A DNA stretch of 64,000 bases from a virus (IMGVR_UViG_3300028591_000136:37108-101107); one strand, 5' to 3'; shown: positions 1 through 39,139, counted from the first letter of the stretch. Notes: generated from the letters alone by a model not told the origin. Made by a program: numbers and translations.

Positions 1-3000
1 TAAGATCCAAACCTTCTATAGATGACGCTCCAAAAATGAAACATGGTTGCTTGTCTTCGAGCTGAACAAAAGCATCTATCTGTGCTTCTCCGCCTGGAGT
101 AACGCTTGCTTCTGTCAAACCGTCTCCGAGGACCGTAACTATTTCGTCACCCTTAGAACCATACTATGCTTTAAAGAATGTATCGTTTGTAGGATAAATC
201 TTTATAAGGTTATATCCGCTTATATCCTGTGGTTTACTGATACGGAACTATATGGAATGTTTGGTAAAGTCTCCACAAGACCATTTTGCGTCATAATAGT
301 TCATTGACTTACTCAACCACCAGTGTCTATGAGACGTTCTAGCACCATTGAGGTATAATCTATATTTCGGGTTTTTAGTAGCATCGATATACTTATAATG
401 TCCAGATTCGTTATATAAAGTTTCTGACCACTTCTCAACATACTCTTCATCAAACATTTTAGATGCGTTGTCGTAGGTAAGTCCAGCTTGATACAGAGCT
501 TCTGCTACTTCTGGAACAATTGTGTTAGCCCAGTAGTCCCAACATTCCAAGCAATCCCACAGTACGTTAGATTGTGTTGCTGTTCTTCCTGAGAATGCGT
601 ATGTCGTACCTCCAGCTTTGGTGTCACGAGTCAATGGTGGTTCGTATGCAATCACACCATTGTTAGCACAACCAAGTGCAATATCCATATCCCATGGCTC
701 ATAGTGCCAGTGTTGTCCGTCGTATGTTTTTAACTGTGCATTACGTTCAACCGAGTCAATAAGACCGAATCGTAGGAAGAAAATATAGTATGCTGCAAGC
801 TTATATAGATCCAGGTGATCATGCGCTTCGTTCATGAATTTTGTAAGCTCGGCCTGTGTAACACGAGCCTGTGATCCAGTTTCACCAAGAACAGAGCCTG
901 TAGATTTTAACGCGGCAACGTCAGTAATCCAATCCAAGAACTGCATAAACGGTGTAACAGTCTGTTGGAATTCTTCAGGAGAGAAGTTTTCGTTTTCGTC
1001 AACGATATCCTCTTTGTCCGGATATATTAACTCAAAATGTTGTTCCCAATAGTAAGATGTAGCCCTTCCGTTCTGGTCTGTGGTATAAGCATCGTCGAAT
1101 CTGTGCTGTTCGCCTGAAGGAATAAGGTTATCGTTTTCGTCAAGCATATAACTGCTTGCAATATTCTTACTAGAATAACTGGTCAACGGCGAGTTAGGAT
1201 ATACAACTTCTACCTGCAATACGTTTTTGTTATCCCATACTTTGTTTTCAGACTTGTCTTTCTTCTTGTTGTCAATCTTCATGCAGAATGGGTCTGATGG
1301 ATCGTCTGTAAGATATATACTTCTTTCACCATACACGAAATCTGACTTCTTGTCGTCCATAAACACGTACTGTCCTAAAAGCGTAAGCTCTTGATTTTGA
1401 GTAGATGTATCTCTATAGAATACAGTACACGGGAACGAGTCTGCAGCATTTCTTATAGTGTAAGGGAAGTCTACGTTTGCTATTTCTGGCCAAGTCTTTC
1501 CTACGCGATTTGCATTATATCCGTTCTAAGTACTAATTAAATTGTAATATCCGTCTACCCAGCTTCCGTCTTCATTTAGATTAGGATCGTTGTGCGTAAT
1601 CTTCGCACCTGATGTAAACAACTGTGGAGTAGTTCTCAGCTTATATTCTCCGTCAAAACTTGCATTATACCACGTATCTTGAATAAGTCTTAACAGCGAA
1701 CCGTTGTGTGCACCAGAAGAGTCGGCATAGTTTGCTTGCAATACGAACTTGTTTGATGGTATTGCGCCATTCTTCATTATATATCTATTCTTGTTGAGAC
1801 CAAGATATTGTTGAGAACTACATATAAGCTCTGGAACAACTTCCTATGTAACACCACCGCTTTCATAAAACTTATTACTCTTATTCAACCATATCTTCAT
1901 AGAAGTGATTGGATAGGAAAGAGTAGACTGTCCGTGGTTTCTTATTCTACAGTTTGTTACTGTAAAGTTTTTACTTGGATCAATGTTTGATTCTCTACTA
2001 ATATTTACCGTAGCGTTCTCTTTAGCTTGGGCATTGTTTAATATATTATCAAGATCTCCTTCTATCACAATGAGATCTTGTTTGCCCTACATTCCGGCAT
2101 ATGTTATAGAAGAACTATTTCCGTATACATCATTTCTACTTATCAGGGAAGAATCACTAATGTTATCAAACATGTAGTTATCCAATGCCTGTTTTGGAGA
2201 AATATCCTAACGATAAGCTCTGATCGAGTATACTCTAATGCTACTTCTAGACCCTCCGATTTTTATGTTACCAGAAGCACTGTTTATACTTGCATTACCT
2301 TTTACAGCAGCCCTTTCGAGTATACCGTTGTTTATTATATAAATAAGATTGGAGTCGTTTGTTATATCAGAATATCTGTTGAATATAAAACACAACTTGA
2401 TTCTCTCTCCAGCCTTAAAATTAGTTTTTATGGTAGGTGTATTTGAATTCTCGTAGAAAGCCGCACTGTTTGGTGTAATGGCAATATAACCTTTTGTTGT
2501 ATCACCAATGGTAAGTATGACGTCATCTTCACTATTCACCTGTTCTGGTTTAAAGTCTATTTCAAATGCAGCACCATTGTCCAATATATTGTACTAGACG
2601 TTTTCCAAAGTTTCTGGGAACGGACAGTAGTTTATGATGGCATAAGAATCCAATCCTTTTAATACAAGACTGTTGTTATCCCAACCGTTACTGTTGTCAA
2701 AAGATACGCCAGAGCTAAATGTTGTTGTAATATTGTGGTCAAAATCTGTCCAGGAATCCTTTGTCTCAGAAGAGTTTGTTTTACCATATGCAGACAACTT
2801 TAAAGAAAAGTTTCCAGTTTCTGTTACGTTTATAATGTTTTCAGCAATGTTTATTGGGAACTCTTCGACGTCTACTCCGTTAATCCTTGCTACAATGTAG
2901 GAATTGTCAGTTTCGTATGACAATGCTATACTTGGAATAAAGCTCAACGATGTCGGTTTAACACCCTTTGCTCCAAGAATATTTACAAGTTCTGTATACT

Positions 3001-4192
3001 GATATTCTCCAGCAACACCTGTTCGCAAGTACCAGTTTACATCAACCTGTTGGTCGCCAGCGTCTGTATAATAACCCCAATCGAATGTAAACGGAATGTA
3101 TTGTGTGGCATGTAATATAACCTTTCCAGAATCCAAATAGCTGTAGTTTGAATTTGAAGCTGAGTATGCACAGTTTACAAAACCGTTTACAAGGTCTCCA
3201 AGATTTGAAGCAACCTCAAATTCGTATACAAGAACATTACTGTCAAACGTTGTCTAGCTTTCAGCATCACTCATCTGACTCTTTATGGTCATCCTATATT
3301 TTCTAGGAGTATTGTAGTCGCTAGCCAGATACGGATTCTGTATCTCAAAACGCTTTGATGGGTTTGATCCAGTATCAGTGTATCTCCAATCTGCTACCAA
3401 TGTAGACTGAGATGTTCCTGCTTCCGAGATATATACGTTTGTTGTAACCGGAAGGTTTGTAATACTTCTCTTAACTGCTACATCGAAAGAAAACGCTCTG
3501 TTGTTTGATACGCCAGTGTAATATCCTGAGAAATTACTAGATATAGAGAATGTTACCAAGAAAATACTAAACGTTCTAGTAGTTTTGGCATTGTGGTTAT
3601 TAGCCACAGCTTTTATTGTAACCTTGTTTTCTCCAGATCTTAAATACTGATATATGTTTTTAGTAACCGAATCACCAGTAGTTATTTGATATCCTTCACT
3701 GTATGTTACATTTTCAGAACTATCTTTTATCGTATATGTTACAGAAACTACGTCTGAGTCTGGTTCGCCGAGAGAATCTTCTAGTCCAAGTGTATATGAC
3801 AATATTGCGTTGTTGGAAGTAGAGTTACCCTCTATTATATAGCGAGCCTATAAGAATGACTCCAAACCCGTAATCTTGTACGTAGCTGGAAGATCCATGC
3901 TGTACAGTACAAAATCTTCGGCTTTTTCTGGATCATATAAAGGACTGTCTGATTTAGCATATTGCTGCCACAACGTTTTTGCTGCTTCGCTGCTAAAAAA
4001 TCTAATCTGTCCAGCGTCATCATCTTTGTCTGTAACAAATGGTGTTTTTAGTTTTTCCTAAAGAAGTTCACGAATTGATTTACCAGAGATAGGATGGTCT
4101 TGATCCACTCCAGATATAGTATTACCGGTGATACTGTTTACCCCACTGACCCAATCTACGAATTCATTTATTTTTCCTTGATATGTTTCCAT
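1..4192 (-). CDS. Large virion/tail-associated protein with LamG-like and CotH kinase-like domains; TAG-recoded; 3' end outside the window (>1390 aa)
   Basis: ATG at 4192. ORF fragments 3254-3802, 2594-3136, 2207-2584, 1844-2068, 1526-1777 and 248-1366 share one frame and are separated only by TAG (4058, 3848, 3254, 2594, 2207, 1844, 1526, 248, 164). CotH-like motifs LQANYADSSGAHN, GQYVF and IDSVERN...WDMDIALG. Confidence 0.85.
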
Positions 4193-4203
4193 TATATTTT
4201 GTT

Positions 4204-4401
4204 TTAATCAGTCCAAGGTGTGTCATCTGTCCATGGGTATTTATCTATCCAATAACCCATAGCATAACAACTAAGTATCTCTTCTATAATTGGGGGTATA
4301 TCTTCAGGCCAGATAAGTTGCCCCCGCGTGTATACGGCGACAATAGGTAGATCTTTATAGTATATTTGATTTACCTTTCTACCGTTTATATATATTCCCA
4401 T
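4204..4401 (-). CDS. Small hypothetical protein of the tail module (65 aa)
   Basis: Compact ATG-TAA ORF filling the gap between two larger genes. Confidence 0.75.
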   Translation of the reverse strand: MGIYINGRKVNQIYYKDLPIVAVYTRGQLIWPEDIPPIIEEILSCYAMGYWIDKYPWTDDTPWTD

Positions 4402-4412
4402 AATTTAATGTA

Positions 4413-6179
4413 TTATCCAACTGTAGGATTTTCACCAGGGGTTACTTGTGTAACTGCAGTAAATCCGTTACCAACCCATTCTAACTCTTCTTTATCAGCA
4501 ATAGCTTGAGAACTCCAAGGACCAAAACCAGTACCTTTAGCCCAGTTTACAAACATTATAATATCGTTTATACTACAACTAGCAATAGTCTGTGGAGTAT
4601 ATGTATTAGCTGATATTGTTTGTTCGGCTACAGGTATAACATAATCCTGTACAGTACCATCAGAAGGACTAGCAGTTGTAATAGTAAGTGTATTTGTAGT
4701 ACTATTATTTATACCTATAACTTTTAATACACCACAATCCTTTGGGTTATTCTTTTTTGTGAGTTTATATTGTACCTCTATACCGTTGTCTGTCTCACCA
4801 AAATTGAAGCTAGAACCAAAATCAAGGACACCTCCAAGTTTTAATTCACCACCAGATTCAATCTTAATAGCAGGAGCAGGAATTTCCGTAAACGTAATAT
4901 AAACGCCAGTACCAGTATATATCTTAGTTGTATCTGGAAGTGTAGTAAAATCGCCTTCGTTATATATTCCGTCAAGTATATTTTGTGCTAAATCATCATA
5001 TACCTTTTGAGAAATTGTATCAACTGAAATTACTCCATTGTGATTTTCTGGTTCGCTTGTTTCAGAAACCTAATACGTAACATTAGTAGCAATTTCAACG
5101 GCACCTTTGTTTGTAATCTTAGTATGACGATCTTTACCACCATTCATTGCATAAGCAGTCTTGATGATATCTTTCGTTTTGCACTGTTCGTCAGAAGTAT
5201 CGATAAAATCATAAAAATCGTCTGCCGATTCGTATGTCTTTCCAGTCTGTGTAGCAAGAGCACTATTATTTGCGATAGTGTTCTTTTTGTATTTTAATGC
5301 ACCTGTTGCAGGAAGTGCTCCAAGATCACCTTCTATTTCATCTACAATAGTCTTTCCGGAAGGTTCTGTGGTACGATTTGACATCTTCCAAATACCTTCT
5401 CTATTGAATCTGTATTCATCAGTAAAGATAGATGTTTTTTCTGCATTGAACGTACCAAACTCAAGACCGTCACCTCCACCGTGTTCAAATTTAATCTTAT
5501 TCATGTTGCCATCAGAATCATATCCTTTTGGCTGAAGTGCAATTCCACCGTGTTTTTCACAGCGAAGATCGATAGCTTGTGCACGAACTTTTAGGTAACC
5601 GCGCTCCTCACGTTCAGAATTCGTGCCAGAATCAAGAGTTTCTCCAGTAAGAATGCGAACATCCATTACCTTTGCATCGTCAGATTTAAACAATGGTTCT
5701 GCAGAGATATCGCTACCGCTATTTTTATCTTTCTTTCTGGTAGCAGTTTTTGGATTATTTGCAGTACCTACAGCAAGATCAAGTTCTCCAGCAACAACTT
5801 GTAATTTTACAGGATTGTCGCTACCATCAATGTTTTTAACGACAACTTTATCTCTCTTTTTTGGTTCTCTGTGATGAGAACAGAATTGAATGTCGTCTCC
5901 AGACTTTAGTGCAATATCACCATAGTTTCCAGAATAAGAAGCCGTGTTGTTATCCCAAGCAGGCTCAATGTTTACGTTCTTATTGCTTCCAACGGTAACA
6001 TTTCCTTTTGAACTTACAGAGATTACACCATTGGTATCTATTACAGTAGAAGCTGTACCTCCACCACCATTATTGATAGCATCAACAGCTGCGTCTACAT
6101 CTTGAGCTAGGTTATTCCATTCGGTATGGGTTAGTTGGTCCCCAGCATGTTTTTCTGAATATGTAAATTTTTTTGTCAT
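4413..6179 (-). CDS. Putative tail/fibre structural protein (588 aa with one TAG read through)
   Basis: ORF 5070-6179 ends at TAG 5070-5072. The frame stays open to TAA at 4413-4415. Gly/Thr/Ser-rich composition. Confidence 0.75.
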
Positions 6180-6210
6180 ATTATGTTAAATTAATAGGGA
6201 ACGTACCTAG

Positions 6211-6606
6211 TCATTCACCAGCAAGTACAACTGGGAACGTGCCACCAAATGTCCAATTTGTTTTTGCTTCAGGCTCTAATATAAAGTATATTGCATTGTC
6301 TTGATAATTTTGTAAAGCCTGATATTCTTCTAATGTTGTAAATATATGTTTAGTACCGTCTTCACTTATTATAGTAGAACCTGAATGATTATTTTCTAAA
6401 TCAGTAATTCTTTCTGTAAGCTATTCTATTAAGTTTAATATATTACCATCTATAGTAATATCTCCCGATACTGCGCCGTAATATTGTCCGTGTGTCCAGA
6501 TTAAGTGTTTATCCTATATAAACACAATACTCTATCTGTCTATTTCGGATAATTTACTTTGAAAATCTGTTAAAGTTTTAAAATATAAAAACCGATATTT
6601 AATCAT
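6211..6606 (-). CDS. Hypothetical tail-module protein, TAG-recoded (absent from the ORF track)
   Basis: ATG 6606, MIKYRFLYFKT...IWTHGQYY..., in-frame TAGs at 6532, 6514 and 6421. TGA at 6211-6213; the frame continues to TAA at 6181. Confidence 0.75.
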
Positions 6607-6644
6607 ACGACGTACTGTCTTTAATTTTACATATTTATATATAT

Positions 6645-6677
6645 GGTTAAAGGGGCCCATTACTGGGTCCCTGAACC
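6645..6677 (-). terminator. GC-rich hairpin after dUTPase (possible terminator or processing site)
   Basis: Inverted repeat AGGGGCCCA-TTAC-TGGGTCCCT; weak U tract. Confidence 0.35.
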
Positions 6678-6734
6678 TCATGAAGCATTGCCAGACTTAT
6701 GTACGCCGCTTCTCAGGCTTTTATTACGTAATTA

Positions 6735-7289
6735 TTATGCCTGCTCAGGGATGCTTTGTTCCCCGCCGCTACCCTCGTTTGCAGTCTCTTGAGCTTGTTC
6801 CTCCTCTATAGCGGGAGACTCAACAGATCCTGTGGGCGCGCTCTCTGTACTCGTCTCATCTGTACTACCAAATCCTTCATTACCACGATCACCGTTGGAA
6901 AGTTCAGAAGTTTCAGTGAATGTGAATTCTGGACAAGGAAGTATCAGCAACTGAGCAAATTTTTCACCTGGTTTGTATACAGCAGGTACAACATCTGTAG
7001 TTGACCTAAACTTAGCCATTACCTCACCTCTGTAACCAGCGTGTACTACACCTGCATGATTTGTAAGCATAAGTGACTTCTTGTATACAGAAGATCTTGG
7101 TATAAGGAGACCAAAGTAACCCTCTGGAATCTCAATAGCCAAACCAGTATGGTAAACTAAAATAAGTTGTCCGCACTCATTTACCTCTGTAGTAATATCA
7201 GTGGCAACTAAATCAAATCCTGCGTCACTTTCGTGAGCACGTACCGGAGCTACTGCTCTCTGGTCAAGTTTCTTAAAATTTATATTCAT
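6735..7289 (-). CDS. dut: Trimeric dUTPase
   Basis: Motifs AGFDL, HTGLAIEIPEGYFGLLIPRSS, AGVVHAGYRGE, AQLLI and RGNEGFGST. Confidence 0.95.
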   Translation of the reverse strand: MNINFKKLDQRAVAPVRAHESDAGFDLVATDITTEVNECGQLILVYHTGLAIEIPEGYFGLLIPRSSVYKKSLMLTNHAGVVHAGYRGEVMAKFRSTTDVVPAVYKPGEKFAQLLILPCPEFTFTETSELSNGDRGNEGFGSTDETSTESAPTGSVESPAIEEEQAQETANEGSGGEQSIPEQA

Positions 7290-7312
7290 GTCTAAATATT
7301 ATTTTATTCAAG

Positions 7313-7410
7313 TACTGGCGGTGGGAGTTGCACCCACTTTTGACTGTATACTATCAATCGCTCTTCAAGGTTTTACGTATACCTATTATCCTGTCTTGAG
7401 TTACGCCAAT
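7313..7410 (-). ncRNA. tRNA-like element with expanded D-loop and 8-nt anticodon loop
   Basis: Acceptor ATTGGCG/CGCCAGT, T-arm GTGGG-TGCAACT-CCCAC, anticodon stem GATTG/CAGTC with loop ATAGTATA, and a D-loop of about 34 nt. Abuts the CCA end of the suppressor tRNA. Confidence 0.6.
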
Positions 7411-7485
7411 TGGTCCCGGCGACCGGTTCGCTCCAGTTATTTTGGGGTTAGAGCCCAATGTGTTAGCATCATACACCACACCGAA
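7411..7485 (-). tRNA. Amber suppressor tRNA (anticodon CUA)
   Basis: Reverse complement folds as TTCGGTG / GTGT..ACAC / TTGGG-CTCTAAC-CCCAA / ACTGG-AGCGAA-CCGGT / CGCCGGG-A-CCA. Anticodon CTA at 7451-7449. Non-canonical 6-nt T-loop. Confidence 0.85.
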
Positions 7486-7489
7486 GGGG

Positions 7490-7726
7490 TGGCTCTTTTA
7501 ACGACTGAGCCAGAAGATGTCTAAATACTCATATTAGATGAGCCCTACTGCAGTCGCGATCTGCTGTACTCTTTGTATGTAGGGCTAGGCCTCAGCTCGC
7601 AAGCTGAGCACGTAGGTTAACTCCTACGTTAGTTATACGGCCTGGGTGCTGTTCTCGTATGTCCAGCCAACCTCCGCGACAACCCGAAAAACATGTCGCT
7701 ACATACTCTGCGGGAAGCATCCCAGG
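7490..7726 (-). ncRNA. Structured intergenic RNA upstream of the suppressor tRNA
   Basis: GC-rich tract with stems CCTGGGATGCT/AGCACCCAGG, GCGACA/TGTCGC, ACGTAGG/CCTACGT, CTCAGC/GCTGAG, AGCCCTAC/GTAGGGCT and TGGCTC/GAGCCA. Confidence 0.5.
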
Positions 7727-7738
7727 AACTGTTATTTC

Positions 7739-8089
7739 TTACTTTCTACGAATCCAATTCCAGAAGCGCTTGAAGATATTAGGCTTCTTGATTTTATAGT
7801 TACCCTTAGAATCAAAGATGAGTTTCTCATCACCCTTAACTTCAATCTTTGCACCAGGTACATTCATGAATGTATCTACTGCTGCAGCAGCAATCAGATC
7901 GATACTCTCATAAACTGCATTATCTTTAGCAAGCTCAAGTTCCTCTGTAGTAATTGGTTTGCCTGCACGAACCTTAGCGCTTACAACTTCGTTGTAAAGT
8001 TGTGCTGGAGTAGTGTTATCTACACAGTTCATAATGAACTCAGGTTGTACAGTCTTCTTTGTAGTTTTCTTTGTATCTGTCTTTTTCAT
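7739..8089 (-). CDS. Hypothetical protein
   Basis: 116-aa ORF in an operon; basic amphipathic C-terminus. Confidence 0.8.
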   Translation of the reverse strand: MKKTDTKKTTKKTVQPEFIMNCVDNTTPAQLYNEVVSAKVRAGKPITTEELELAKDNAVYESIDLIAAAAVDTFMNVPGAKIEVKGDEKLIFDSKGNYKIKKPNIFKRFWNWIRRK

Positions 8090-8110
8090 AATTGTATATT
8101 TATATTCTGA

Positions 8111-8482
8111 TTAACACGACTTACAACAATTCTCGCAATCACAGCAACTAGGACCATCAATGTTCTGTCCCATCGCTTCAGCGTTCTTAAGTCTAGCTTC
8201 CTCCATTCGCTTCTCGTAACTTTCGAGATTCTTGATCCACTCTTCACTCTTTACAACGATCATTCGCTTATCGAACTCGTCAGTATAGAATGTAACAATA
8301 ACATCATTCTTCTCTACATCAGCCTCTTCTCTATGTTTACCAGTCTGATAGATTACGTGCATCTGTTCTGGAGCTACATAAATGCGCTGGATTGCTTCAC
8401 GTGCAGAAGGAATACTGCTAACTTCATTAGTATCAAAATCTACTGTCATATTGATACCTTCCTTAATAAACATCGTCTTCAT
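8111..8482 (-). CDS. Hypothetical protein with Cys-rich C-terminus
   Basis: 123-aa ORF; ATGA overlap with the upstream gene. Confidence 0.8.
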   Translation of the reverse strand: MKTMFIKEGINMTVDFDTNEVSSIPSAREAIQRIYVAPEQMHVIYQTGKHREEADVEKNDVIVTFYTDEFDKRMIVVKSEEWIKNLESYEKRMEEARLKNAEAMGQNIDGPSCCDCENCCKSC

Positions 8483-8691
8483 GTTGTATAACCTTTAGAT
8501 TTATTTTCTTTATATCTACGTTTCAGCTTAAACTTGAATAGTTGATTGAATAGGATGTCTTGACTTGCTTTATCGTCTTTCATCAATTCTACTGTTTGTA
8601 TGAATGGATGTTTACATACTACTTCAACTGTTTCTTTATCTATTCCAGTTCTCTTAGAAACTTCTTTTATGACTTGTTCAATATCAATCAC
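8479..8691 (-). CDS. HU/IHF-like DNA-binding protein
   Basis: IEQVIKEVSKRTGIDKETVEVV...ILFNQLFKFKLK resembles the HU/IHF helix-helix-beta pattern. Confidence 0.6.
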   Translation of the reverse strand: MIDIEQVIKEVSKRTGIDKETVEVVCKHPFIQTVELMKDDKASQDILFNQLFKFKLKRRYKENKSKGYTT

Positions 8692-9101
8692 TTCTCAATA
8701 CCAAGTATATCGTATTGTCTCAGAAGTCGACTGTCTTTAAGCAAATCAAAACGAAGTCCTGCTGCGTCTCTAAAGATTACCGTATCACCAACATTTATAT
8801 GTCTAATAATTGTATCAGCAGACTGTTCATTATAGTATAATGGACACTTGATAACTATTCCTCTACGATAATCAGAATCAACTTCTTTAACCTCTGTCTC
8901 AACATTTTCGAAGTCTTGTGCCTCGACTCCATTTGCATCTTTTGCGGGTGTACCAGTTGCGACAGGTTTACTAAACTCTTTCTTAACTTTAACCGGATCC
9001 AGGGGCTTTACAAGGAAGAAGTCAAGGAATTGGTATTTAACTCCATTGGCTACACTCTCTGCCAGCTCCGATTGGTCAATCATTTCATTTGTTTCGTTCA
9101 T
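8688..9101 (-). CDS. GroES/Cpn10-like co-chaperonin
   Basis: FLVKPLD...RRGIVIKCP...INVGDTVIF...LLRQYDILGI matches the GroES pattern. Confidence 0.65.
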   Translation of the reverse strand: MNETNEMIDQSELAESVANGVKYQFLDFFLVKPLDPVKVKKEFSKPVATGTPAKDANGVEAQDFENVETEVKEVDSDYRRGIVIKCPLYYNEQSADTIIRHINVGDTVIFRDAAGLRFDLLKDSRLLRQYDILGIEK

Positions 9102-9511
9102 TTCTTCAAGCTTTTAAGGTGCTCAAGTAATGTAATCATATTCGTCAGTACTGTCTGACGCTCTACCTTCACACATACTGGAAGGTCGGCCATATCCTGC
9201 TCGATGGTCTCCAAACCTTTCTTGTACTTAGTAAGTAAAGAATCAATCTCGTCGAATATATTAACGAAAGACTTATCACTTACTTCAGTAGCTTCCTCAA
9301 GGTAACCCTCTTCAACAAGAGCCTTTGCATATTCTACAGAGATCTTGAATTCTGAGGTGTATGAAGATTTCACATCGTTAGCAGTATCATCTGCCTTATA
9401 GAATTCCTCATTGTGTTTAGAGATATACATCTTCTCTTCATTCGAATATTCGAAGACATCTCCCAAATTCACAACAAGAAATGGTTCAACAACTCGTAAT
9501 ATTTTTGCCAT
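9098..9511 (-). CDS. Hypothetical protein (first gene of the leftward late operon)
   Basis: 137-aa ORF with ATGA overlap. Confidence 0.8.
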   Translation of the reverse strand: MAKILRVVEPFLVVNLGDVFEYSNEEKMYISKHNEEFYKADDTANDVKSSYTSEFKISVEYAKALVEEGYLEEATEVSDKSFVNIFDEIDSLLTKYKKGLETIEQDMADLPVCVKVERQTVLTNMITLLEHLKSLKK

Positions 9512-18439: not shown

Positions 18440-18511
18440 GGCCGCATCGTCTATCGGCTAGGACGAGAGATTTTCATTCTCTAAAGAGGAGTTCGACTCT
18501 CCTTGTGGCTA
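18440..18511 (+). tRNA. tRNA-Glu(TTC)
   Basis: Acceptor GGCCGCA/TGTGGCT, anticodon arm AGAGA-TTTTCAT-TCTCT, T-arm AGGAG-TTCGACT-CTCCT. Confidence 0.9.
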
Positions 18512-18645
18512 CAAATTATTAAAACGGATGCTGTGGTATGGATGTTACGAAACCGGGGTCGCGCAAGAAGCAGCTTATAAATCATGACCCGCTGCTAGGA
18601 GATACAGAAGTATCCACAGTTGTCGCCAGACGTCTATAGGCGACA

Positions 18646-18718
18646 GCGTTGTTAGCTCAGTTGATAGAGCACCGGCTCAATAAGCCGGAGGTCGTTGGTT
18701 TGAGTCCAACACGACGCA
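18646..18718 (+). tRNA. tRNA with atypical anticodon loop (TCAATAA; nominal AAT/Ile, C at position 33)
   Basis: Full cloverleaf GCGTTGT/ACGACGC, GCTC/GAGC, CCGGC/GCCGG and GTTGG-TTTGAGT-CCAAC. Confidence 0.7.
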
Positions 18719-18757
18719 CAATGCAATATTGCAGAAAATGATCAAAACATTATCAAA

Positions 18758-21565: not shown

Positions 21566-21732
21566 TAGACCACCATATCACCTAATTTTAAGGTTTCAAG
21601 AAAAGCCTTTCTAAGCGTTTTTAAAGCTTGAGTGGATTAGCTACCCACGAGAGTAGAGAAAATGTCTCAGAGAGCCTAGAAATGGCCTTAAATCGAATGT
21701 TTTGACTGATCATCTTAACATTCACAACAAGA

Positions 21733-22010
21733 ATCTTAGCGTGTCCCAGGATACGTCGTTCGGACGGGGGTTCGATTCCCCCCAGGTCCACCTGTACGGT
21801 TCTTTTACGTAGCGACCGATGGGTACAGCCGGTGAATTTTCTACCTAAAAAGAAAAGCTACAATCCGGGCTTGAATGGTTTAGACGGCGACAGAAAGTAA
21901 GACATTAAGCGCTTTGATATAAAAATTAACTGGCAATATTAAAATTGCAGACTACACGGGTCTCAAGGAGGCAGCGTGAAGTCGGTGTACAGGCTACCTA
22001 AGTGCCTGTG
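21733..22010 (+). ncRNA. ssrA: Circularly permuted (two-piece) tmRNA; tag (A)GNIKIADYTGLKEAA*
   Basis: The 3' end GGAC-GGGGG-TTCGATT-CCCCC-CAGGTCC-ACC (21762-21792) precedes the 5' end GGGCTTGAATGGTTTAGACGGCGAC (21867). G3:U70 acceptor pair. TAACT resume motif, then tag frame 21932-21979 ending AA-stop. Outer ends are approximate. Confidence 0.85.
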
Positions 22011-22016
22011 AAACGA

Positions 22017-22091
22017 GAATGAGTTGAGTGAGAGGATAACTGTCCTGCAGCTTTGCCGGATCACGTGGGTTCGAATCCCACACTCATTCCA
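22017..22091 (+). ncRNA. tRNA-like element with non-canonical D and anticodon arms
   Basis: 8-bp acceptor GAATGAGT/ACTCATTC and T-arm GTGGG-TTCGAAT-CCCAC; no standard 7-nt anticodon loop. Confidence 0.55.
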
Positions 22092-23395: not shown

Positions 23396-23598
23396 GGCTG
23401 ACAACTTAATCTGGATTAGTATTCCAGCAGCCCGCAATACTTGACGAGGGTGGGTGGAATAAATCTCTCACACAGTACTGAGAGGCAGTAGGCACCACTA
23501 TGGTAGGTAGTACGAAAGTGGAGTGTAGTCAAGTAAACTTATACAGCACCGTCTGTTACGCGAGTGACACGCTAATAACCGGTAAAATTGTTTTGATT

Positions 23599-24156
23599 AT
23601 GAACCCACGTATTACCCCAGAGGAGGTTGGGATAATCAAAAGAGCGCAAGCAGGTGATGAACTTGCTTTTAATGCACTTTATCATAGGTACAAAGGATTC
23701 GTGGAAAATCTCCTTTTTCATTATCTTAAAGATATGGATGAGGCCAAGGAAATTGCAAATGTAGTTTTCTTAAAAGTGCATGAGAAACTCTCTAAGTTCA
23801 CAGCTTATGACTCCTTTGGAGGATGGCTGAGAATTTTAACAAATCGAACTGCTATCGATTATCTTCGTAGTATAAAGAACAAGCAAACAGCTTCTGACGT
23901 GAAAGAAGAACGACTTACTTCTGACATTCAGGGTTCTACAGAAAATGATCTAGTCAATCATTTGACCTATAAAGCTTTGTTGCGTGAATTCTTAACGTTT
24001 CCAGAGGTCACTCGTAAGATCTTTGAACGTTTCTACATTGATAATATGACAGTAGAAGAGATTAGTGAGTCGTTCAATCCTAAAATCCCAACTGGAACTA
24101 TTAAGTCAACGTTGTCTAGGACTAGACGAAAATTGAAAAAACGTTTAAAACTCTAA
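23599..24156 (+). CDS. ECF-type sigma-70 factor
   Basis: AQAGDELAFNALYHRY; region 2 EAKEIANVVFLKV...FGGWLRILTNRTAIDYLR; region 4 MTVEEIS...TGTIKSTLSRTRRKL. Start at 23599 preferred over 23500. Confidence 0.92.
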   Translation: MNPRITPEEVGIIKRAQAGDELAFNALYHRYKGFVENLLFHYLKDMDEAKEIANVVFLKVHEKLSKFTAYDSFGGWLRILTNRTAIDYLRSIKNKQTASDVKEERLTSDIQGSTENDLVNHLTYKALLREFLTFPEVTRKIFERFYIDNMTVEEISESFNPKIPTGTIKSTLSRTRRKLKKRLKL

Positions 24157-26157: not shown

Positions 26158-26604
26158 ATGAAATACGTAATGACAATTTTGTGTTCCTTTGCATTTGCCA
26201 TCGCTGGTATATGCTTAGCAATACAGAATAATAGTAGCAGTCCTGGTTATAATCAGAATGCTATTCACGCATCTACGCTTCCCAAATATGGGACGCCAAA
26301 GTTGCCACTTGATCTCCAATTGGATTTGGAGAAGAAGTACTCTAAGACAGACACTGTGTATTTGCCTTCTGACACGGTGTTTGTAACGAAACAACAGAAG
26401 GCCAAACCTAAAGTCCGTAGAGCGCATACACTCAAATCGGCTTCGATGAGTCGTCAGAGTTTACGCAGTCCAGCGTATAATCCTGACTCCATTGTGAAAA
26501 ACAAAGTATGTGGGGATCGTGAGGAGCATACCCCAGACACTATTGGACTTCCTAAAAGTTCCATTATCCTCGTTGTCGACGGCGAGGAAGTCTACAAACG
26601 TTAA
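26158..26604 (+). CDS. Membrane-anchored or secreted hypothetical protein
   Basis: N-terminal hydrophobic helix; DTVY...DTVF repeats. Confidence 0.75.
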   Translation: MKYVMTILCSFAFAIAGICLAIQNNSSSPGYNQNAIHASTLPKYGTPKLPLDLQLDLEKKYSKTDTVYLPSDTVFVTKQQKAKPKVRRAHTLKSASMSRQSLRSPAYNPDSIVKNKVCGDREEHTPDTIGLPKSSIILVVDGEEVYKR

Positions 26605-28770
26605 TAGCTCCGCAGGGGGACAGTATGAGGATTTGTACTGTCCCACCCCGTTGGGGACCTGGTCAGCATTCGTCTAAGGAATTGGTCCCATTAGCCATAG
26701 AATGCGAAATAGTACAACTTGATCCGAGAATATGTCAGCCTTCTCAAAAGGTGAGAAACCCAAAAGGTAGGATGAAATGCTGCATTGTATACGTACTATA
26801 TACCGAAAAGTTTGCAGTAAGAGGACAGAGCGTTTGTATCAAGTCCTTTGGCCATTGAGAACCGTCTGGAGAATGGGTGACCATAAAAACGCGTAAGTCG
26901 CAAAAAGCGCAAAATGATGCCGTATTCGACATGCTATTCGATGATACATAAGAATAGTATAACGTTACAGGAGCCGCAACATTGAGTTTGAAGCCAATCC
27001 CTCAATGATGTATCAATAAGCTGTAGTCTAGTGTTCCACGTCTCCACAACGTGTATGAAGGGATGAAAAATATCTGAGCATATGTGCCTAGCAGAAGGTT
27101 TGACTGTCTGCGCTGTACCGTAACTATGGTCCTTTTAAGAGTCCTTGCAGTTCGATTCTGCACAACTCCGTTGAAGGGGTGCCAGGGATGGGGTATAAAG
27201 GAAAATGTGATGAAGATGACCGCCAGGCTTTAGTCGTTCAAGCGGGATATAAAAGTAAATGACTACAAGTGGATGCAACACTTAATTCGTAAGGTTCTGG
27301 AGCCTACGATACGCGGATGAAGCGCGCGGAGAAACGCTATTTCAATTGAGGATGAGCACTGGTAAGCGAGTGTTATGTTCGAAGTAGGAAATGCTTTTGG
27401 GTGACTCCCTGACAGTCAAAATTCTTATCCCAGTGGTCGATTCGAAGCCTGTACATTCCAGTATAGAGAGAGATCGCTACTGTCAAAAACATTAAATAAT
27501 TAGATGATTACCTTATGTTGCTAAATCACCATTCCCTACAGAGTATTAAGCTGGTATATTAGGTGTGAATAACATATCGTATGGAGTAGATTCTAAGTAA
27601 AAAGATGTGAGTAGAGAACAATCCTTTTATAGTGTTTTTGCACTTTATAATTAACATGTTTAACAAAAATTGATGTCCCCTGGCTGGGAGAAAATAAAGT
27701 GTAAGCCGAAGACCCCGTTTGTAATGTTTGTGGGTGCTTTCACGCCAGAAATCGAGTGCCAACCGTTCCTGAGAAGCAAATTGACAAGATGAATCCTGTT
27801 TGAGTATGGACTGCAAATCCATATGATCGGCAGAGACCATGAAGTCGTATACATTTAATCGATGGGCAGCTTATCGTGAAATTAGTAGCCACCTCCTTGT
27901 CTCGGAGGGGTAAAGAGAATGAGTAATTAGTCTGTCGAAAGACAGTTCGCTGATGAAAAGGATTCGGTGAATATGAATCTTTAAGTGGGTGACAAGAAGC
28001 GATGTATGAGGTGGAATTCCTCCAGTATTCGTGCACTATAAACAAATGAGGATGAGCAAACATCCAACAGAAGTAATTAAAGCCGTAGGGTCTGAGAAGA
28101 GTTTTGGAGCTCTGAGATCGTCCGATAACGAAACGTACTCCTCACGTACACCACACGCAAGGTGTATAAAAGCAGGAAAAGGTAAACAGTTAGTATACGC
28201 CTTAAAGTATGCAACATCAGAGAAAATCTGTGGTTAAGTAACAATCACGGTAGTTATTCGTTTTTGTTTCTGGGAATTACACTAACGAAGAAATACCAAC
28301 TTTTGTGGGCGCTGATATGTACTATGAGCATTAGTTGGCTTTGCCAAAATTTTGTCAACGTACATTGAGGCATTGTAATATTGGATTTAGTACGTAAGGA
28401 AAGTATTCAATAAATGTTTTACGAAAAATAAACATCAATAAGATATGACTCAAGTAAACTTAGTGTTTGATTACACAAATTCAGCATTCAAAGCTTTGGG
28501 TTCTATTAATGATGATGGGCCTGGATAATCCTACCGTTGGATTCCCGTTATACGAGTTGAGCTTCATGTAAAGGAATATAGAAGTATAACTAGTCATTGA
28601 TAAAAGCGTTGCTTCCCATTAGCACAGCAACTGAGAAATAAGTTGAACAAGCGCATCCTTGAGAGCCTTGAGCCGGATGTAAAATATTTTCAAGGTTAAC
28701 CTACACCGTAGAAGTAGGAAGTAAATAATCTTATCGTTGGTGGATCAACCACGATATCAAAAAGGATAAG
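26605..28770 (+). ncRNA. ~2.1 kb hairpin-dense non-coding tract (candidate large ornate RNA or RNAs)
   Basis: No convincing protein ORF and more than 20 visible stems, several with GAAA or T-loop-like loops. Confidence 0.5.
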
Positions 28771-28775
28771 AATAA

Positions 28776-29432
28776 ATGAGTAAAAACGTAGAAATTAACC
28801 TCAATGAGGTTATTGCGAATACTCGCCAATCAGCGAGTTTCATTGGAAGTCTTCTTGGTAAGACTTTTGGTAAGGTAGAATGTCAGATGACATGGCCTGG
28901 TGGTAAAGACAAGTTTGAAGAGGCAAAGAACATTGCAGCAGCCAGCAACTCACTGATGCTCAATATGTCTCCTCGTCGTTATACCATCCGTCTGATCGAC
29001 ATCAAGGGTGTGAACTATGTAACAGAGGGTCTGGGTGATTCCCAGCATGTTGCTATTGCTGTTAACCTGAAGGCGAACGGTGAGAGCGACTTCAAGTGTC
29101 CTCTGAACGGTGTGAACCCCGTCGTTGTTGAGAAGTCAATGCGCGATGCTATTAACGACGCTCTGAAGGGTACTGGTAAGAACTTCTTCGTCGCAGTTGA
29201 CGAGGCCGTTAGCTGCCTGAATGAGGCTAATAAGAGCACTCTGAGTGAGATTGATGCTCTCATCAAGACCTTGCAGGGTCAGCGCCAGTCTGTAGAGACC
29301 GCTATTACGGAGAATCTTCGTAAGGCCTCTGAGTATAAGCGCCAGTGGAACGAGTCGAAGGTTGAAAACCTTGACTTGAAGACAGATGGTGTTAACGACG
29401 CAGTTATTAACGTTCATACTACCGACGAATAG
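28776..29432 (+). CDS. Hypothetical protein
   Basis: 218-aa ORF with strong codon bias. Confidence 0.85.
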   Translation: MSKNVEINLNEVIANTRQSASFIGSLLGKTFGKVECQMTWPGGKDKFEEAKNIAAASNSLMLNMSPRRYTIRLIDIKGVNYVTEGLGDSQHVAIAVNLKANGESDFKCPLNGVNPVVVEKSMRDAINDALKGTGKNFFVAVDEAVSCLNEANKSTLSEIDALIKTLQGQRQSVETAITENLRKASEYKRQWNESKVENLDLKTDGVNDAVINVHTTDE

Positions 29433-30972: not shown

Positions 30973-31683
30973 ATGACTAAGAATAATACAGTAGACACTG
31001 CCCAGAAGGGTCAGACTACAATAGATAAGACTCCTACAGGTAAAGTAAAGACTTTAAAGACTGCTGAAGAGCGTCGTAAAGTACGTGAAGAACAGTATCG
31101 TAACTTCCGCATCAATGCACTACGTCGTCGTTGTAAGCGTTATGGCTTTGATGAGGAGAAGACGGAAGAGTTCGTTAAGAAACTCATCGAACAGATGGAT
31201 GCTCCTAAAGAGTACTCTATTCTCATCATGTTGTCTGTAAAAGACGGTTCTATGATGAAGGAAGCGCTTGCAAAAGCAAACATTACCTATAAGTATCACG
31301 GAGATACATATTTCTCTATAGACGGCAACCAGAAAGTACTAGCTAAAATACGAGAGATAGCACCACCGAGTGCTAAAATCTACCCGTATTCCAAGAAGAT
31401 GGAATCAGTCTTGCCTAAGCAAGAGAAGGAGGTTATAAAGAAGCCTACTAACAATACTGCAGAGAAGAAGGCAGCAGCTAATCCGAAGCGTCCTATGCAT
31501 AAAGCTGTAAAGTCTACACGATACTTTCACCGTATGCAGAAGGGTCGTTATAAGAATCTACGAGAGGTTTTTCTCGCCCACAAGCGTTCAAAAAAGCACA
31601 AGGCTACAACTGTCCAGCTTAATGCTAAGAAGAGCTCTACGGGCTCGAAAAAGGCCTCTACGAACCTCAAAAAAGCTGCATAA
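30973..31683 (+). CDS. Hypothetical Lys-rich basic protein
   Basis: 236-aa ORF. Confidence 0.8.
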   Translation: MTKNNTVDTAQKGQTTIDKTPTGKVKTLKTAEERRKVREEQYRNFRINALRRRCKRYGFDEEKTEEFVKKLIEQMDAPKEYSILIMLSVKDGSMMKEALAKANITYKYHGDTYFSIDGNQKVLAKIREIAPPSAKIYPYSKKMESVLPKQEKEVIKKPTNNTAEKKAAANPKRPMHKAVKSTRYFHRMQKGRYKNLREVFLAHKRSKKHKATTVQLNAKKSSTGSKKASTNLKKAA

Positions 31684-31698
31684 GAAAGGAGGTAAGCT

Positions 31699-32484
31699 AT
31701 GAAAGATAGTAGACAACGTGCAAAAATAGTTCGTAGAAGAAAAGTAGCGAACCTTGCAGCCTATAGTCGTCAGCACACCGTTAGAAATTGTGTAATTCCT
31801 AAAGCTGCAGAAGACTGGAAAATTATTCCATTTGGTAGTAAAATACAGCAAGACTTCAAGAATAAGTATCCATCTATACAGTCTGGATGTGGAATTGCTT
31901 ACAGAATAGATGATAAAGGCAATATACATTTAAAAGATGATAGTTGGAAGGATCCGGATGAAGGATATCCGCAGTATAAACCTATGATGAAGAAGCATGT
32001 TGAGTGGATTTATAACAAAGAAACTCATATGACTGAGAAAGTACATGTAGCTTCAACATTCCCAACGAAGAAGTATGTTGACATACAGAAGTCGCTGTGG
32101 AAAAATCTAGGCTCAGCAGCCAAGATGGAGCTTTATACTCAAGATAAGCTCAAGAAATGGGAAAAGAAACATCCAAAGCCATGTCCTAACGACGATTTGT
32201 TCAAGGACGAATTCATTCCTCAGTGGGAACACGAAAGGGAAGAGGCTTTGATTCGCATCAGAGACTTCGTTGTCTCAATGTTCGACAAACTAAAGGTAAC
32301 AGCGTCATTGATACCACCACTTCCAGCAAAAGAAATATTGTTGGCAAAAATAAAAGACCGTGGTAACGATAAAAATGTCGAAGTTGCTACAAAAATTGCA
32401 AAGCAAGCAATGAAGAACAATAAACACATTCTTCATTGTCAGTTGCTAGACCACAAAGAGAAATCTTATCGTCTAGTAGCATAA
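31699..32484 (+). CDS. Hypothetical protein
   Basis: 261-aa ORF. Confidence 0.8.
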   Translation: MKDSRQRAKIVRRRKVANLAAYSRQHTVRNCVIPKAAEDWKIIPFGSKIQQDFKNKYPSIQSGCGIAYRIDDKGNIHLKDDSWKDPDEGYPQYKPMMKKHVEWIYNKETHMTEKVHVASTFPTKKYVDIQKSLWKNLGSAAKMELYTQDKLKKWEKKHPKPCPNDDLFKDEFIPQWEHEREEALIRIRDFVVSMFDKLKVTASLIPPLPAKEILLAKIKDRGNDKNVEVATKIAKQAMKNNKHILHCQLLDHKEKSYRLVA

Positions 32485-32749: not shown

Positions 32750-34774
32750 ATGTGGATACGAGATCGTAAAGTCGTTGTTTTCGACATAGAGATCTTCCAG
32801 AATTGTTTCCACTGTTGCTGTAAAGACACAGAAAGTAAAAGAATAATAAACTTTGAAATATCAGAAAGAAAGAACCAACTAGAAAATTTAGCTGGTTTCT
32901 TTTATTATAATGATTATGCATCACAATGTATGTTTTGTGGTTATAATAATCACCATTACGATGATGTTATAATTAATTATATAATAGATTACAAAGATAA
33001 ACTGACAGGTCTGCCTTACTGGAGGATCTGTCAGTCTCTTTTCAATCTTTCACAAACTATAGTGGAAGACGAGGAGGGAAGTCGTGAGAAAGTCAAACGA
33101 TGGAAGTATGCACATTATTTTCAATCTATGGATTTACTCACAATGATGTTTAGTCAAAAGCTTCGTGTAGGTCTTAAAACTATGCAAGCTACGATGCACT
33201 ATCATAATGTATATGAATATGAAGGAGACTTTAATAAGCCTATACCTCCTACTGAAATAGACAATATGATAGGGTATAACATCAACGATGTCGAATCAAC
33301 AGAAGAGTTATTAAACCAGTTGAAAGAGCAAATCGATTTAAGATTATTCATCGAAAAAGAACACGGCATAGATTGTCTCTCTATGGACAGTGTTAAGATG
33401 GCAGAGACCTTTCTATTAGAAGAATATTCTAAGAGATCAGGTATTCCTAAAAATGTTATAAAGGAAATGCGTTCTCCAATGGATTATATACCGTTGAAGG
33501 ATGTTATTCTGCCATTTATAAAATATAAAAATCCAAAGTTACAAGACGTTCTAGAGGATATGAAGAAACAGATCGTATACTCTAAAGAGCGCAAAGGCTA
33601 TGAGAAGAAGTTTGTTCTCTCAAATGTGGTGTATTCTGTGGGTGTAGGTGGAATTCATTCCATTCATAGTCCACAAATATTCCTCCCTAAAGATAACGAG
33701 CACATTGGACACGCCGACGTTACGTCCATGTATCCGTCTTTGTTGATTAAATATCAGCTTGGACCTCGTCACTTAGGAAAATTATTTTGCGATATATTCG
33801 AAGGTATTTACCACGAGCGAGTAGAAGCAAAACGTACTGGTCAAAAAATTAAGAATCTGTTTCTAAAGATCGTGCTTAATTCTCCTACAGGAAAAATGCA
33901 ACAGGAGGTGAGTTGGATGTATGATCCGTTCAACGTTTTTAAGATTAGAATAAACGGTCAGCTAATTCTTTTAATGCTCGTAGACAGGCTTTTAGAGCTT
34001 GGCTGTGAAATTATTCAGGTCAACACTGATGGCGTTGTCTACAGAGCTAAAAACAGCCTTAGAGAAGGAATTGAGAGAGCCATCTCAGAGGTAGAACAGA
34101 TAACCCAACTTGGTTTTGAAGTAGATGAGTACGAAGCCTTCTATCAGTATGCTATTAATGACTACTTTGGGGTCTTAGCAAACGGAGAGATAGAAGAAAA
34201 AGGTATGTTTATTACGAAGACAAAACTTGGAAAAGGATTGTCTCCAGTGGTAATTCCAAAAGCAGTAATAAACTACTTTGTCCATCATATACCAGTGACA
34301 GAAACTATTGAGAAGGACAGAGACATCCGGGATTTCTTAATGTCACAAGCAGTAGATAAGAAATTCAAAGTTATACATGGTGATAAACCTGTACAACGTA
34401 TCAATAGATTTTATGCAAGTACAAATGGGCCGTATTTGTTCAAAGGTCTTGTAGACCCAATGCGTGTTGTACAATTCGTAAAGATTACTTTTAAGGACGG
34501 TACAACAGTAGAGGCACCTAGAAGCGAAGTAGAAGAACAAGGAAGATATTGGTATAATTCCGATATTGCTTCTATTGAAAATATAGGTACAAGAACTATA
34601 AATTTGAATGAAGTAGAAGGCTTACAAAATATGCTAACTAAATCAGGAGTAACAATCCTGAATAAGTTTGATGATCGCCCGATAGAAGATCGTAAGATTA
34701 ACTATCGTTACTATATCAGTGAAGCCAAGAAAGTGATAGCGGACTTTACTGAACAACAGCTATCATTATTTTAG
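32750..34774 (+). CDS. Family B DNA polymerase
   Basis: ExoI FDIE, GYNNHHYDD, YNINDV; polymerase motifs DVTSMYPS, KIVLNSPTGK and NTDG; C-terminal QLSLF. Confidence 0.92.
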   Translation: MWIRDRKVVVFDIEIFQNCFHCCCKDTESKRIINFEISERKNQLENLAGFFYYNDYASQCMFCGYNNHHYDDVIINYIIDYKDKLTGLPYWRICQSLFNLSQTIVEDEEGSREKVKRWKYAHYFQSMDLLTMMFSQKLRVGLKTMQATMHYHNVYEYEGDFNKPIPPTEIDNMIGYNINDVESTEELLNQLKEQIDLRLFIEKEHGIDCLSMDSVKMAETFLLEEYSKRSGIPKNVIKEMRSPMDYIPLKDVILPFIKYKNPKLQDVLEDMKKQIVYSKERKGYEKKFVLSNVVYSVGVGGIHSIHSPQIFLPKDNEHIGHADVTSMYPSLLIKYQLGPRHLGKLFCDIFEGIYHERVEAKRTGQKIKNLFLKIVLNSPTGKMQQEVSWMYDPFNVFKIRINGQLILLMLVDRLLELGCEIIQVNTDGVVYRAKNSLREGIERAISEVEQITQLGFEVDEYEAFYQYAINDYFGVLANGEIEEKGMFITKTKLGKGLSPVVIPKAVINYFVHHIPVTETIEKDRDIRDFLMSQAVDKKFKVIHGDKPVQRINRFYASTNGPYLFKGLVDPMRVVQFVKITFKDGTTVEAPRSEVEEQGRYWYNSDIASIENIGTRTINLNEVEGLQNMLTKSGVTILNKFDDRPIEDRKINYRYYISEAKKVIADFTEQQLSLF

Positions 34775-38931: not shown

Positions 38932-39084
38932 ATGGAAGAAAAGAAGTTCAAACATGGAACAAAAGAGTACTGGATGGACTGGTACTGGAACAGAGGTGGA
39001 CGAGAAAAAGTCCAAGCTAAACGTTATATACGAGAGTATGAACGTGAAAAGAAAAAACGGAGGGCACGTACCTCAGTTGAATAG
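38932..39084 (+). CDS. Small basic protein (50 aa)
   Basis: MEEKKFKHGTKEYWMDWYWNRGG...; its TAG stop lies inside the next tRNA-like element. Confidence 0.5.
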   Translation: MEEKKFKHGTKEYWMDWYWNRGGREKVQAKRYIREYEREKKKRRARTSVE

Positions 39085-39139
39085 AGGTCTGGCGCGAAAG
39101 TTAGCCGGAAAGTCGTGGGTTTGAGTCCCACCGTGTCCA
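39062..39139 (+). ncRNA. tRNA-like element with Ala-type acceptor (G3:U70, A73) and 10-nt anticodon loop
   Basis: GGGCACG/CGTGTCC-A, CCTC/GAGG, CTGGC-GCGAAAGTTA-GCCGG and GTGGG-TTTGAGT-CCCAC. Confidence 0.7.

Follow-up and report, generated by a model that had tools for sequence, protein, structure and literature searches.

A family-wide, non-coding locus of crAss-like Suoliviridae phages predicted to specify a large structured RNA of a new class

Large structured RNAs that lack a known function are, to our knowledge, few (among them GOLLD, ROOL, OLE, and raiA), and each of them has revealed an unexpected RNA architecture. GOLLD and ROOL measure about 0.6–0.8 kb. GOLLD, ROOL, and OLE are reported in one published account as RNA-only homo-oligomers (PMC12286853). 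The locus described here resembles GOLLD (RF01998) and ROOL (RF03087) in that all appear to be large, conserved, multi-helix phage non-coding RNAs whose biochemical function is not known, in genomes that carry tRNA genes. It differs from them in having no sequence or structure match, in occupying a gap about 2.5–3.5 times longer, and in lying between protein genes of an operon rather than beside tRNAs, so that the analogy is one of size, phage context, and ornateness only. OLE (about 610 nt, from Bacillota) and the raiA-motif RNA are likewise large RNAs in which many helices covary and single-stranded stretches are conserved, features suggestive of a ribonucleoprotein, but both are cellular rather than phage-borne and are unrelated in sequence. 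The known protein partners of OLE are encoded alongside it, whereas the proteins neighboring the present locus are of no recognized family or fold. Judged from sequence comparison, the whole family has here a locus for a large, structured RNA that belongs to a new class; the nearest known kind is the ornate phage RNAs, to which it is unrelated and which it far exceeds in length.

The window, that is, the whole 64,000-nt stretch of DNA analyzed, comes from a complete virus record of 101,107 bp, that of a gut crAss-like phage. Few viruses in the guts of humans and animals are as abundant as the Suoliviridae, formerly the "delta" crAss-like phages. Positions 26605–28775 form a gap of 2171 bases between two + strand genes, 26158–26604 (148 aa) and 28776–29432 (218 aa), both of which are complete, each with its own start and stop codon. 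The GC content of the gap (0.405) is close to that of coding DNA. Between 10 and 43 kb every gene has the same orientation, and the gap is located upstream of the replication module, whose DNA polymerase gene is found at 32750–34774. An ECF-type sigma factor (23500–24156) is the sole neighboring protein with a Pfam or PHROG family; the other neighbors have neither. A 474-aa protein retrieved nothing from the ESM Atlas, Foldseek matched an AlphaFold model of the downstream 218-aa protein (pLDDT 73) to no PDB entry at E ≤ 0.001, and the isoelectric points of the neighboring proteins gave no functional lead. The RNA genes of the same genome include tRNAs and a permuted tmRNA.

An ORF-free gap of 1.85–2.5 kb with the same genes on either side was found in about 70 crAss-like genomes, covering all five Suoliviridae subfamilies (Oafivirinae, Uncouvirinae, Bearivirinae, Loutivirinae, and Boorivirinae). 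Within the crAss-like phages of the Oafivirinae, blastn returned patchy, collinear matches of 74–82% identity, each in an unannotated gap of 2.0–2.2 kb in a shared gene order, in which a sigma-like factor and two hypothetical proteins precede a protein of about 140 aa; the gap follows, then two proteins (about 200 and 190 aa), with the DNA polymerase further along. A search with a pattern derived from one invariant loop recovered 76 IMG/VR loci, and the gap is ORF-free and 1974–2255 nt long in the 62 IMG/VR and GenBank loci that cover the full region; an apparent gap of 1.59 kb in five near-identical contigs resulted from a chance low-complexity ORF of 109 aa. Iterated blastn from divergent members reached the Uncouvirinae, Bearivirinae, Loutivirinae, and Boorivirinae, with gaps again of 1.85–2.5 kb. 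A short covariance model (R1) gave significant E-values in the Oafivirinae only; with filters off, its best weak match fell in the gap, on the + strand and at a similar offset, in four of the five loci from other subfamilies, these matches being individually non-significant (E 0.5–3). The flanking proteins are 23–36% identical among the phages, and the RNA blocks are 75–100% identical. The conserved domains are collinear in every subfamily, and no gene is inserted between them in any of these genomes. Taken as a comparison of sequences and gene order, these data show that 26665–28775 is an RNA locus homologous across the family. The share of columns at least 80% conserved divides the gap as follows:

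26605–26680, variable spacer, 0% of columns
26680–27480, Domain I, 31% of columns
27480–27650, linker 1, 10% of columns
27650–28130, Domain II, 23% of columns
28130–28480, linker 2, 5% of columns
28480–28775, Domain III and operator, 20% of columns

The gap does not behave as coding sequence. As an earlier note on this DNA had claimed, it holds no protein-like ORF: no frame in 26605–28775 exceeds 107 aa under code 11, under TAG read as Q, or under code 4. Mismatches to the closest relative, which is 72% identical over the gap, have no three-nucleotide periodicity on either strand (p 0.66–0.94), and the same test applied to the two downstream genes gave p = 1.5e-16 and 5e-7. Minus-strand ORFs are frequent in the gap because the + strand is purine-rich, and they are not conserved among the relatives. 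The minus-strand CDSs annotated within the gap in the GenBank records of Bohxovirus, cr7_1, and Dulem virus 42 are therefore considered spurious, and public records should be read as carrying false proteins at this locus.

Evidence for a structured RNA comes from compensatory change. The main alignment contained 24 non-redundant sequences, 43–72% identical to the window. In alignment A2 (window positions 26660–27500 plus 23 relatives), 155 pairs were placed in 33 helices, with 85.4% of cells paired vs 35–41% when the partners were slid, and double-change cells numbered 584 vs 108–165 in the slid controls; none of 500 shuffles reached the observed values. RNAalifold found double compensatory changes in 54 of the 74 consensus pairs of A2. 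The remaining pieces repeated the pattern with fewer pairs. In the piece covering Domain II (27480–28300), 89% of cells were paired vs 31–51% in slid controls, with 122 vs 22–34 double-change cells, and in that covering Domain III (28240–28775) the values were 84% vs 32–45% and 84 vs 12–26. G:U pairs outnumbered A:C pairs on the + strand (530 vs 135 in the alignment of 24 sequences), which indicates that selection acts on the + strand transcript, and the RNAalifold consensus energy was −210.6 kcal/mol on the + strand vs −173.9 on the − strand. The description of the gap as hairpin-dense was not borne out for the single sequence, whose minimum free energy lay near that of dinucleotide shuffles (z −0.12 for 26665–27480 and +0.25 for 27650–28130), and the case therefore rests on comparison with the relatives. 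The comparisons show 26665–28775 to be a + strand, non-coding locus constrained by RNA structure, and it is very probably a functional one. Three conserved domains, two fast-evolving AT-rich linkers, and a closing 55-nt candidate operator can be recognized, with the following features:

26605–26664, + strand, variable spacer after the upstream gene, no column 80% conserved
26665–27480 (about 815 nt), + strand, Domain I, the best conserved and most densely paired, supported by the covariation in A2
26669–26705, + strand, 5' hairpin of Domain I, loop UCCCAUUAG
26719–26725/26770–26776, + strand, helix of Domain I
26850–26878, + strand, hairpin of Domain I with the invariant loop GAGAACCGUCUGG (at 26857) and a covarying stem
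27037–27053 and 27112–27130, + strand, hairpins of Domain I
27141–27193, + strand, three-way junction with closing stem GUCCU/GGGAU
27218–27267, + strand, H-type pseudoknot with an A-rich third strand, its stems S1 and S2 separated by AUAUAAAAG
27316–27343 and 27402–27418, + strand, hairpins of Domain I
27481–27650, + strand, variable AT-rich linker 1, in which covarying hairpins persist (e.g., 27530–27561)
27651–28130 (about 480 nt), + strand, Domain II, seven helices supported
27653–27679, + strand, conserved AT-rich block AACAUGUUUAACAAAAAUUGAUGUCCC of Domain II, a single occurrence in the 64-kb window
27752–27766, + strand, CGAGUGCCAACCGUU in Domain II
27804–27824, + strand, hairpin of Domain II, followed by GAUGGGCAGC and by the hairpin 27931–27949
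27984–28044, + strand, AAGUGGGUGACAA...GAGG-UGGAAUU-CCUC...UAUUCGUGCACUAUAAACA in Domain II
28084–28124, + strand, hairpin of Domain II
28131–28480, + strand, variable AT-rich linker 2, GC about 0.34
28481–28715 (about 235 nt), + strand, Domain III, containing CAUUCAAAGCUUU
28528–28545, + strand, hairpin UCCUACCGUUGGAUUCC of Domain III
28606–28631, + strand, hairpin GUUGCU-UCCCAUUAGCAC-AGCAAC of Domain III, with a UC(Y)CAUUAG loop as in the 5' hairpin
about 28652–28695, + strand, hairpin followed by an A/U-rich tail in Domain III
28716–28775, + strand, candidate translational operator of gene 28776, a long covarying hairpin

The spacer that follows the upstream gene folds into a strong hairpin in the window (about 26617–26649, GGGGGACAGTA...TACTGTCCCACCCC), of which the sequence is unconserved; per-genome folds of most relatives place a different strong hairpin at this position, often with a YUUUGCGC loop and with no U-run. 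The stem GGGACAGTA/TACTGTCCC listed in the earlier note marks a real hairpin directly past the upstream stop codon, but one within the unconserved first 75 nt. In three lineages (L046, L068, and L063), the first conserved hairpin is only 21, 10, and −9 nt, respectively, away from the upstream stop codon, too close for a promoter of its own to fit in between, so that the RNA of these lineages would have to be co-transcribed with the upstream gene or start inside it.

Two elements of Domain I point to an elaborate fold. One is the three-way junction, of which the first arm is a T-loop-type hairpin, UGCAG-UUCGAUU-CUGCA (27146–27162), and the second is the hairpin 27163–27181; in helices 22–24 of A2, which make up the junction, 5/5 and 4/6 pairs are compensated. 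The T-loop hairpin gave the region's only near-match in Rfam, a partial one to cyano_tmRNA at 16 bits vs a gathering score of 70. It shares with the T-arm of tRNA and tmRNA a 5-bp stem and a 7-nt T-loop-type loop, but it is here the arm of a three-way junction in a larger fold, with neither an acceptor stem nor an anticodon arm. The other element is the pseudoknot, in which S1 pairs CCGC (27220–27223) with GCGG (27242–27245) and S2 pairs AGUCGU (27232–27237) with A and UGACU (27258 and 27260–27264). S2 has three compensated pairs within the Oafivirinae. S1 is invariant within that subfamily and, as read by eye, compensated between subfamilies (CCGC/GCGG, CUCAC/GUGAG, CUCAG/CUGAG, and GUGAC/GUCAC). 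A kissing pair between two invariant loops, GUCUGG (26864) and CCAGGC (27223), was considered but is unsupported, its variants (CCAGCC) being uncompensated.

Pairing between distant parts of the region was sought all against all in a sequence-only alignment. Loose thresholds returned about as many covarying long-range helices as the parallel-strand control (49 vs 39), and at strict thresholds local hairpins alone passed, so that neither a domain-closing nor an inter-domain helix could be demonstrated. Domain II would be enclosed if UGUUUA (27657) paired with UAAACA (28039), but this pairing varies by G-C to G-U changes only. Linker 2 of the window contains a terminator-like hairpin (28228–28250) with a T-rich tail after it, which is unconserved in the relatives, and hairpin and U-run sites occur in linker 2 of some relatives. 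Simple promoter and terminator scans gave chance-level counts, no site common to the relatives, and no consistent terminator in the linkers, although these poorly conserved stretches may carry signals beyond the reach of such scans. The UC(Y)CAUUAG loop is found at 26686 and 28614 in the window, at both of these positions in roughly half the lineages of the Oafivirinae, and also in the gaps of cr125_1 and cr1_1.

The locus falls outside the described RNA families. The Rfam comparison proposed in the earlier note yielded no match of the locus to any of 4227 families, GOLLD, ROOL, HEARO, OLE, RNase P, introns, and small ribozymes included. For GOLLD, ROOL, OLE, HEARO, and RNase P, no match at the gathering score was seen in the window. 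In 26300–29000, no match to these families, to an intron, or to a ribozyme was obtained at E ≤ 10, and none was obtained at E ≤ 5 when the gaps of seven relatives, which represent four subfamilies, were searched. ARAGORN called no tRNA or tmRNA in 26605–28775, and with the T-loop hairpin as the only, partial tmRNA-like match, both were rejected. A group I or II intron was rejected as well, given complete flanking ORFs and no Rfam intron match. Literature searches that paired crAss-like phages or Suoliviridae with non-coding or structured RNA turned up no account of the locus.

The proposal that the region encodes one very large or several new structured non-coding RNAs agrees with its non-coding status, its family-wide position and size, its covariation, and the Rfam result; the support is comparative and does not derive from the stems picked out by eye. 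Among those stems, CATTGAG/CTCAATG (26982/27001) and CTGTC-GAAA-GACAG (27931–27949) are backed by covariation, as is TGCAG-TTCGATT-CTGCA at 27146–27162, with all five pairs compensated. For GGGACC/GGTCCC and for the long-range TGACAGT/ACTGTCA, the partners are unconserved, and both stems are in competition with local hairpins that are conserved. The supposed tRNA-Cys-like anticodon arm at 27804–27824 is a covarying hairpin, but an ordinary one, of which only the loop GCA recurs and in which neither ARAGORN nor Rfam sees a tRNA. The AACCG(T) motif, described as recurring, has only two exact copies (26860 and 27761), both in conserved blocks, and is therefore not a statistically meaningful repeat.

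The explanation we favor, to which we give somewhat better than even credence, is a structured RNA locus that is co-transcribed with its flanks, adopts a large tertiary fold, acts in trans, and carries an operator at its 3' end. The region would be transcribed, along with the upstream gene, within a long rightward early/middle transcript of the replication module. The T-loop three-way junction, the A-rich H-type pseudoknot, and the conserved loops on covarying stems are hints of a large tertiary architecture, which may serve the infecting phage as a trans-acting structural RNA or ribonucleoprotein scaffold, by analogy with GOLLD and ROOL. The two UC(Y)CAUUAG loops, one near each end, are possible sites at which one factor could recognize, bridge, or excise the unit. 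The chance that such an RNA acts as a trans-acting scaffold or ribonucleoprotein rather than purely in cis is put at about even. That the three domains belong to one unit or transcript is, on balance, modestly favored: the domains are collinear, no gene has been inserted among them, the linkers share no terminator, and a loop motif recurs at both ends; against this, the linkers are barely conserved (5–10% of columns) and no covarying inter-domain helix was found. A stronger version, in which the whole 2.1 kb is one transcript that is excised at the two UC(Y)CAUUAG hairpins and forms a single RNA machine or ribonucleoprotein particle with a dedicated role in infection by one of the most widespread phage families of the human gut, is offered tentatively and is rather unlikely. 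If true, it would be the largest structured non-ribosomal RNA known from any phage or bacterium; it might form a scaffold or a cage, act as a decoy for a defense sensor or a host factor, or be a new ribozyme.

The same weak linkers and missing inter-domain helix would be expected if Domains I, II, and III were approximately several independent smaller RNAs in tandem, with their own ends and functions and adjacent through shared transcription only. Hairpin and U-run sites in linker 2 of some relatives and the further RNA genes of this genome (tRNAs and a permuted tmRNA) also speak for such an arrangement, and the conserved AT-rich block at 27653–27679 could be a start signal for Domain II; occurring only once in the window, this block is not a reused promoter. 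The tandem arrangement is nevertheless judged unlikely, as about 70 genomes of five subfamilies keep the domains adjacent, in the same order, and at the same total length, with never a gene inserted, no terminator is shared, and the same loop motif brackets the whole region. Another way to account for the gap is a giant cis-acting intercistronic leader for the replication-module genes, affecting stability, antitermination or timing, or the translation of gene 28776, with no function in trans. The probable co-transcription of the region with its flanks, the common strand of the genes from 10 to 43 kb, and the well-supported 3' hairpin sequestering an SD-like region of gene 28776 agree with it. 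The known leaders of bacteria and phages, on the other hand, run to tens to a few hundred nucleotides, and a 2-kb stretch with a T-loop junction, a pseudoknot, and conserved helices numbering over 40 far exceeds what the gating of one start codon needs; unconserved sequence, moreover, lies between the operator and Domain III. A purely cis-acting leader is accordingly considered quite improbable.

A function at the level of DNA, as a replication origin, packaging site, or protein-binding array, could be read from the position upstream of the replication module and from some palindromic AT-rich blocks inside the gap, but the strand-asymmetric wobble pairs make it very improbable. Direct repeats in the gap belong to short two-copy families only, with no iterons or iteron-like array, and the cumulative GC skew runs straight through the gap, turning near 10 kb and 43 kb; together with the coding-like GC content, these observations ruled out a replication origin. 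As for a protein-coding gene hidden by recoding, frameshifting, or introns, or a self-splicing or mobile ribozyme element, stop-codon recoding does occur in relatives of this phage family and minus-strand CDSs have been annotated in the gap, but the three codes open no frame, codon periodicity is absent on both strands, and the annotated strand owes its unconserved ORFs to composition. Rfam intron and ribozyme models found no match at E ≤ 10, and the flanking genes are complete. Such a gene or element is therefore scarcely credible.

On the favored reading of a structured RNA locus, all Suoliviridae would give over about 2% of their densely packed genomes to an RNA whose conservation exceeds that of the surrounding proteins and which is absent from Rfam. 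It would be about three times longer than the large RNAs of the GOLLD, ROOL, OLE, and raiA kind, and dozens of diverse sequences are at hand for structure modeling.

Conservation within the gap is highest (0.88) in its last 55 nt, which are unique in the window, and unconserved sequence separates the terminal hairpin from Domain III. The outer helix pairs UCUUAUC (28730–28736) with GAUAAGA (28766–28772), and covers part of an SD-like AAGGA; the AUG of gene 28776 lies 4 nt beyond its end. The inner stem joins 28737–28741 with 28750–28753, the apical loop has an invariant AUCA(A), and the internal loop AUAUCAAAAAGG has an invariant UCA. Hairpin operators that sequester the SD sequence are known from phage mRNAs, namely those of the MS2 coat protein and of T4 RegA, gp32, and gp43. 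In 28716–28775, and there only, a conserved helix with invariant loop bases likewise encloses the ribosome-binding region next to a start codon. The likeness to the MS2 and T4 operators is confined to these last 55 nt, where the stems of the hairpin covary, its loop bases are invariant, and the start codon follows directly on the enclosed region; the difference is that two AUCA-bearing loops and an alternative pairing register are found here, and the factor is only putative. We infer from this arrangement that the hairpin is a translational operator of gene 28776. It would hold the SD-like region of the gene, so that translation would need a factor bound to the invariant AUCA loops, or refolding. 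With this conserved 3' element, translational control could be tested directly in phages that infect Bacteroidota, in which initiation signals are poorly understood. In alignment A6, which comprises 25 sequences from all five subfamilies, the 7-bp outer helix was 89.7% paired with 6/7 pairs compensated, and its covariation score was 0.444 vs 0.07–0.14 in slid controls. The alternative register, in which UAUC pairs with the proximal GAUA, was 79% paired.

The genome of this crAss-like phage is unusually rich in RNA genes. Beside the putative large structured non-coding RNA region, the window carries a circularly permuted tmRNA gene, recovered by both Rfam (tmRNA_permuted) and ARAGORN, together with several tRNA genes and other features, listed here in window coordinates:

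7414-7485 (-), 18440-18719 and 39062-39139: further tRNA genes or matches (ARAGORN and/or Rfam)
21699-22070: tmRNA gene, circularly permuted
22191: tRNA-Met, 3' of the permuted tmRNA
22364: tRNA-Arg, 3' of the permuted tmRNA and tRNA-Met
26617-26649: hairpin following the stop codon of the upstream gene
30973-32484: two very basic proteins, slightly downstream of the RNA region

The tmRNA_permuted match at 21731-21979 reached 65.5 bits, above the gathering score of 47, and the tag peptide given by ARAGORN is GNIKIADYTGLKEAA, followed by a stop. Among the three further tRNA intervals, ARAGORN called Glu-UUC and Ile-AAU tRNAs, and two weaker Rfam tRNA matches (39.7 and 32.3 bits) were without an ARAGORN call.

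The GenBank records of three related phages, Bohxovirus, cr7_1, and Dulem virus 42, place hypothetical proteins within the RNA region, most of them on its minus strand (L003, 3751-4257 (-); L009, 3773-4255 (-); L011, 1983-3757). Neither conservation nor codon periodicity was found for the ORFs annotated within the region, and they were rejected as genes, arising instead from the purine-rich plus strand.

In most relatives, a long stable hairpin lies directly 3' of the gene upstream of the RNA region, falling within the first 70 nt past its stop codon in L019, L045, L051, L085, L018, and L022. Its sequence varies between relatives, and it often bears a YUUUGCGC loop and lacks a U-run; the hairpin may serve as a processing or stability signal. 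On the other side of the RNA region, the two basic proteins (236 aa, pI 10.2, K+R 24.6%; and 261 aa, pI 9.6) are candidate nucleic-acid binders.

The signature from the invariant RNA loop occurred twice (loci L031 and L081) on one IMG/VR contig, IMGVR_UViG_3300045988_076858. The contig is 162,493 bp long, roughly 1.6-fold the usual genome length, and is possibly a concatemer or chimeric assembly.

The minus-strand ORFs of window 1-9500 and 43300-64000, presumably the late arm, are short and fragmented under code 11, which fits the stop-codon recoding reported for the phage family. GC skew changes direction near 10 kb, where the two directions of transcription part, and near 43 kb, where they meet.
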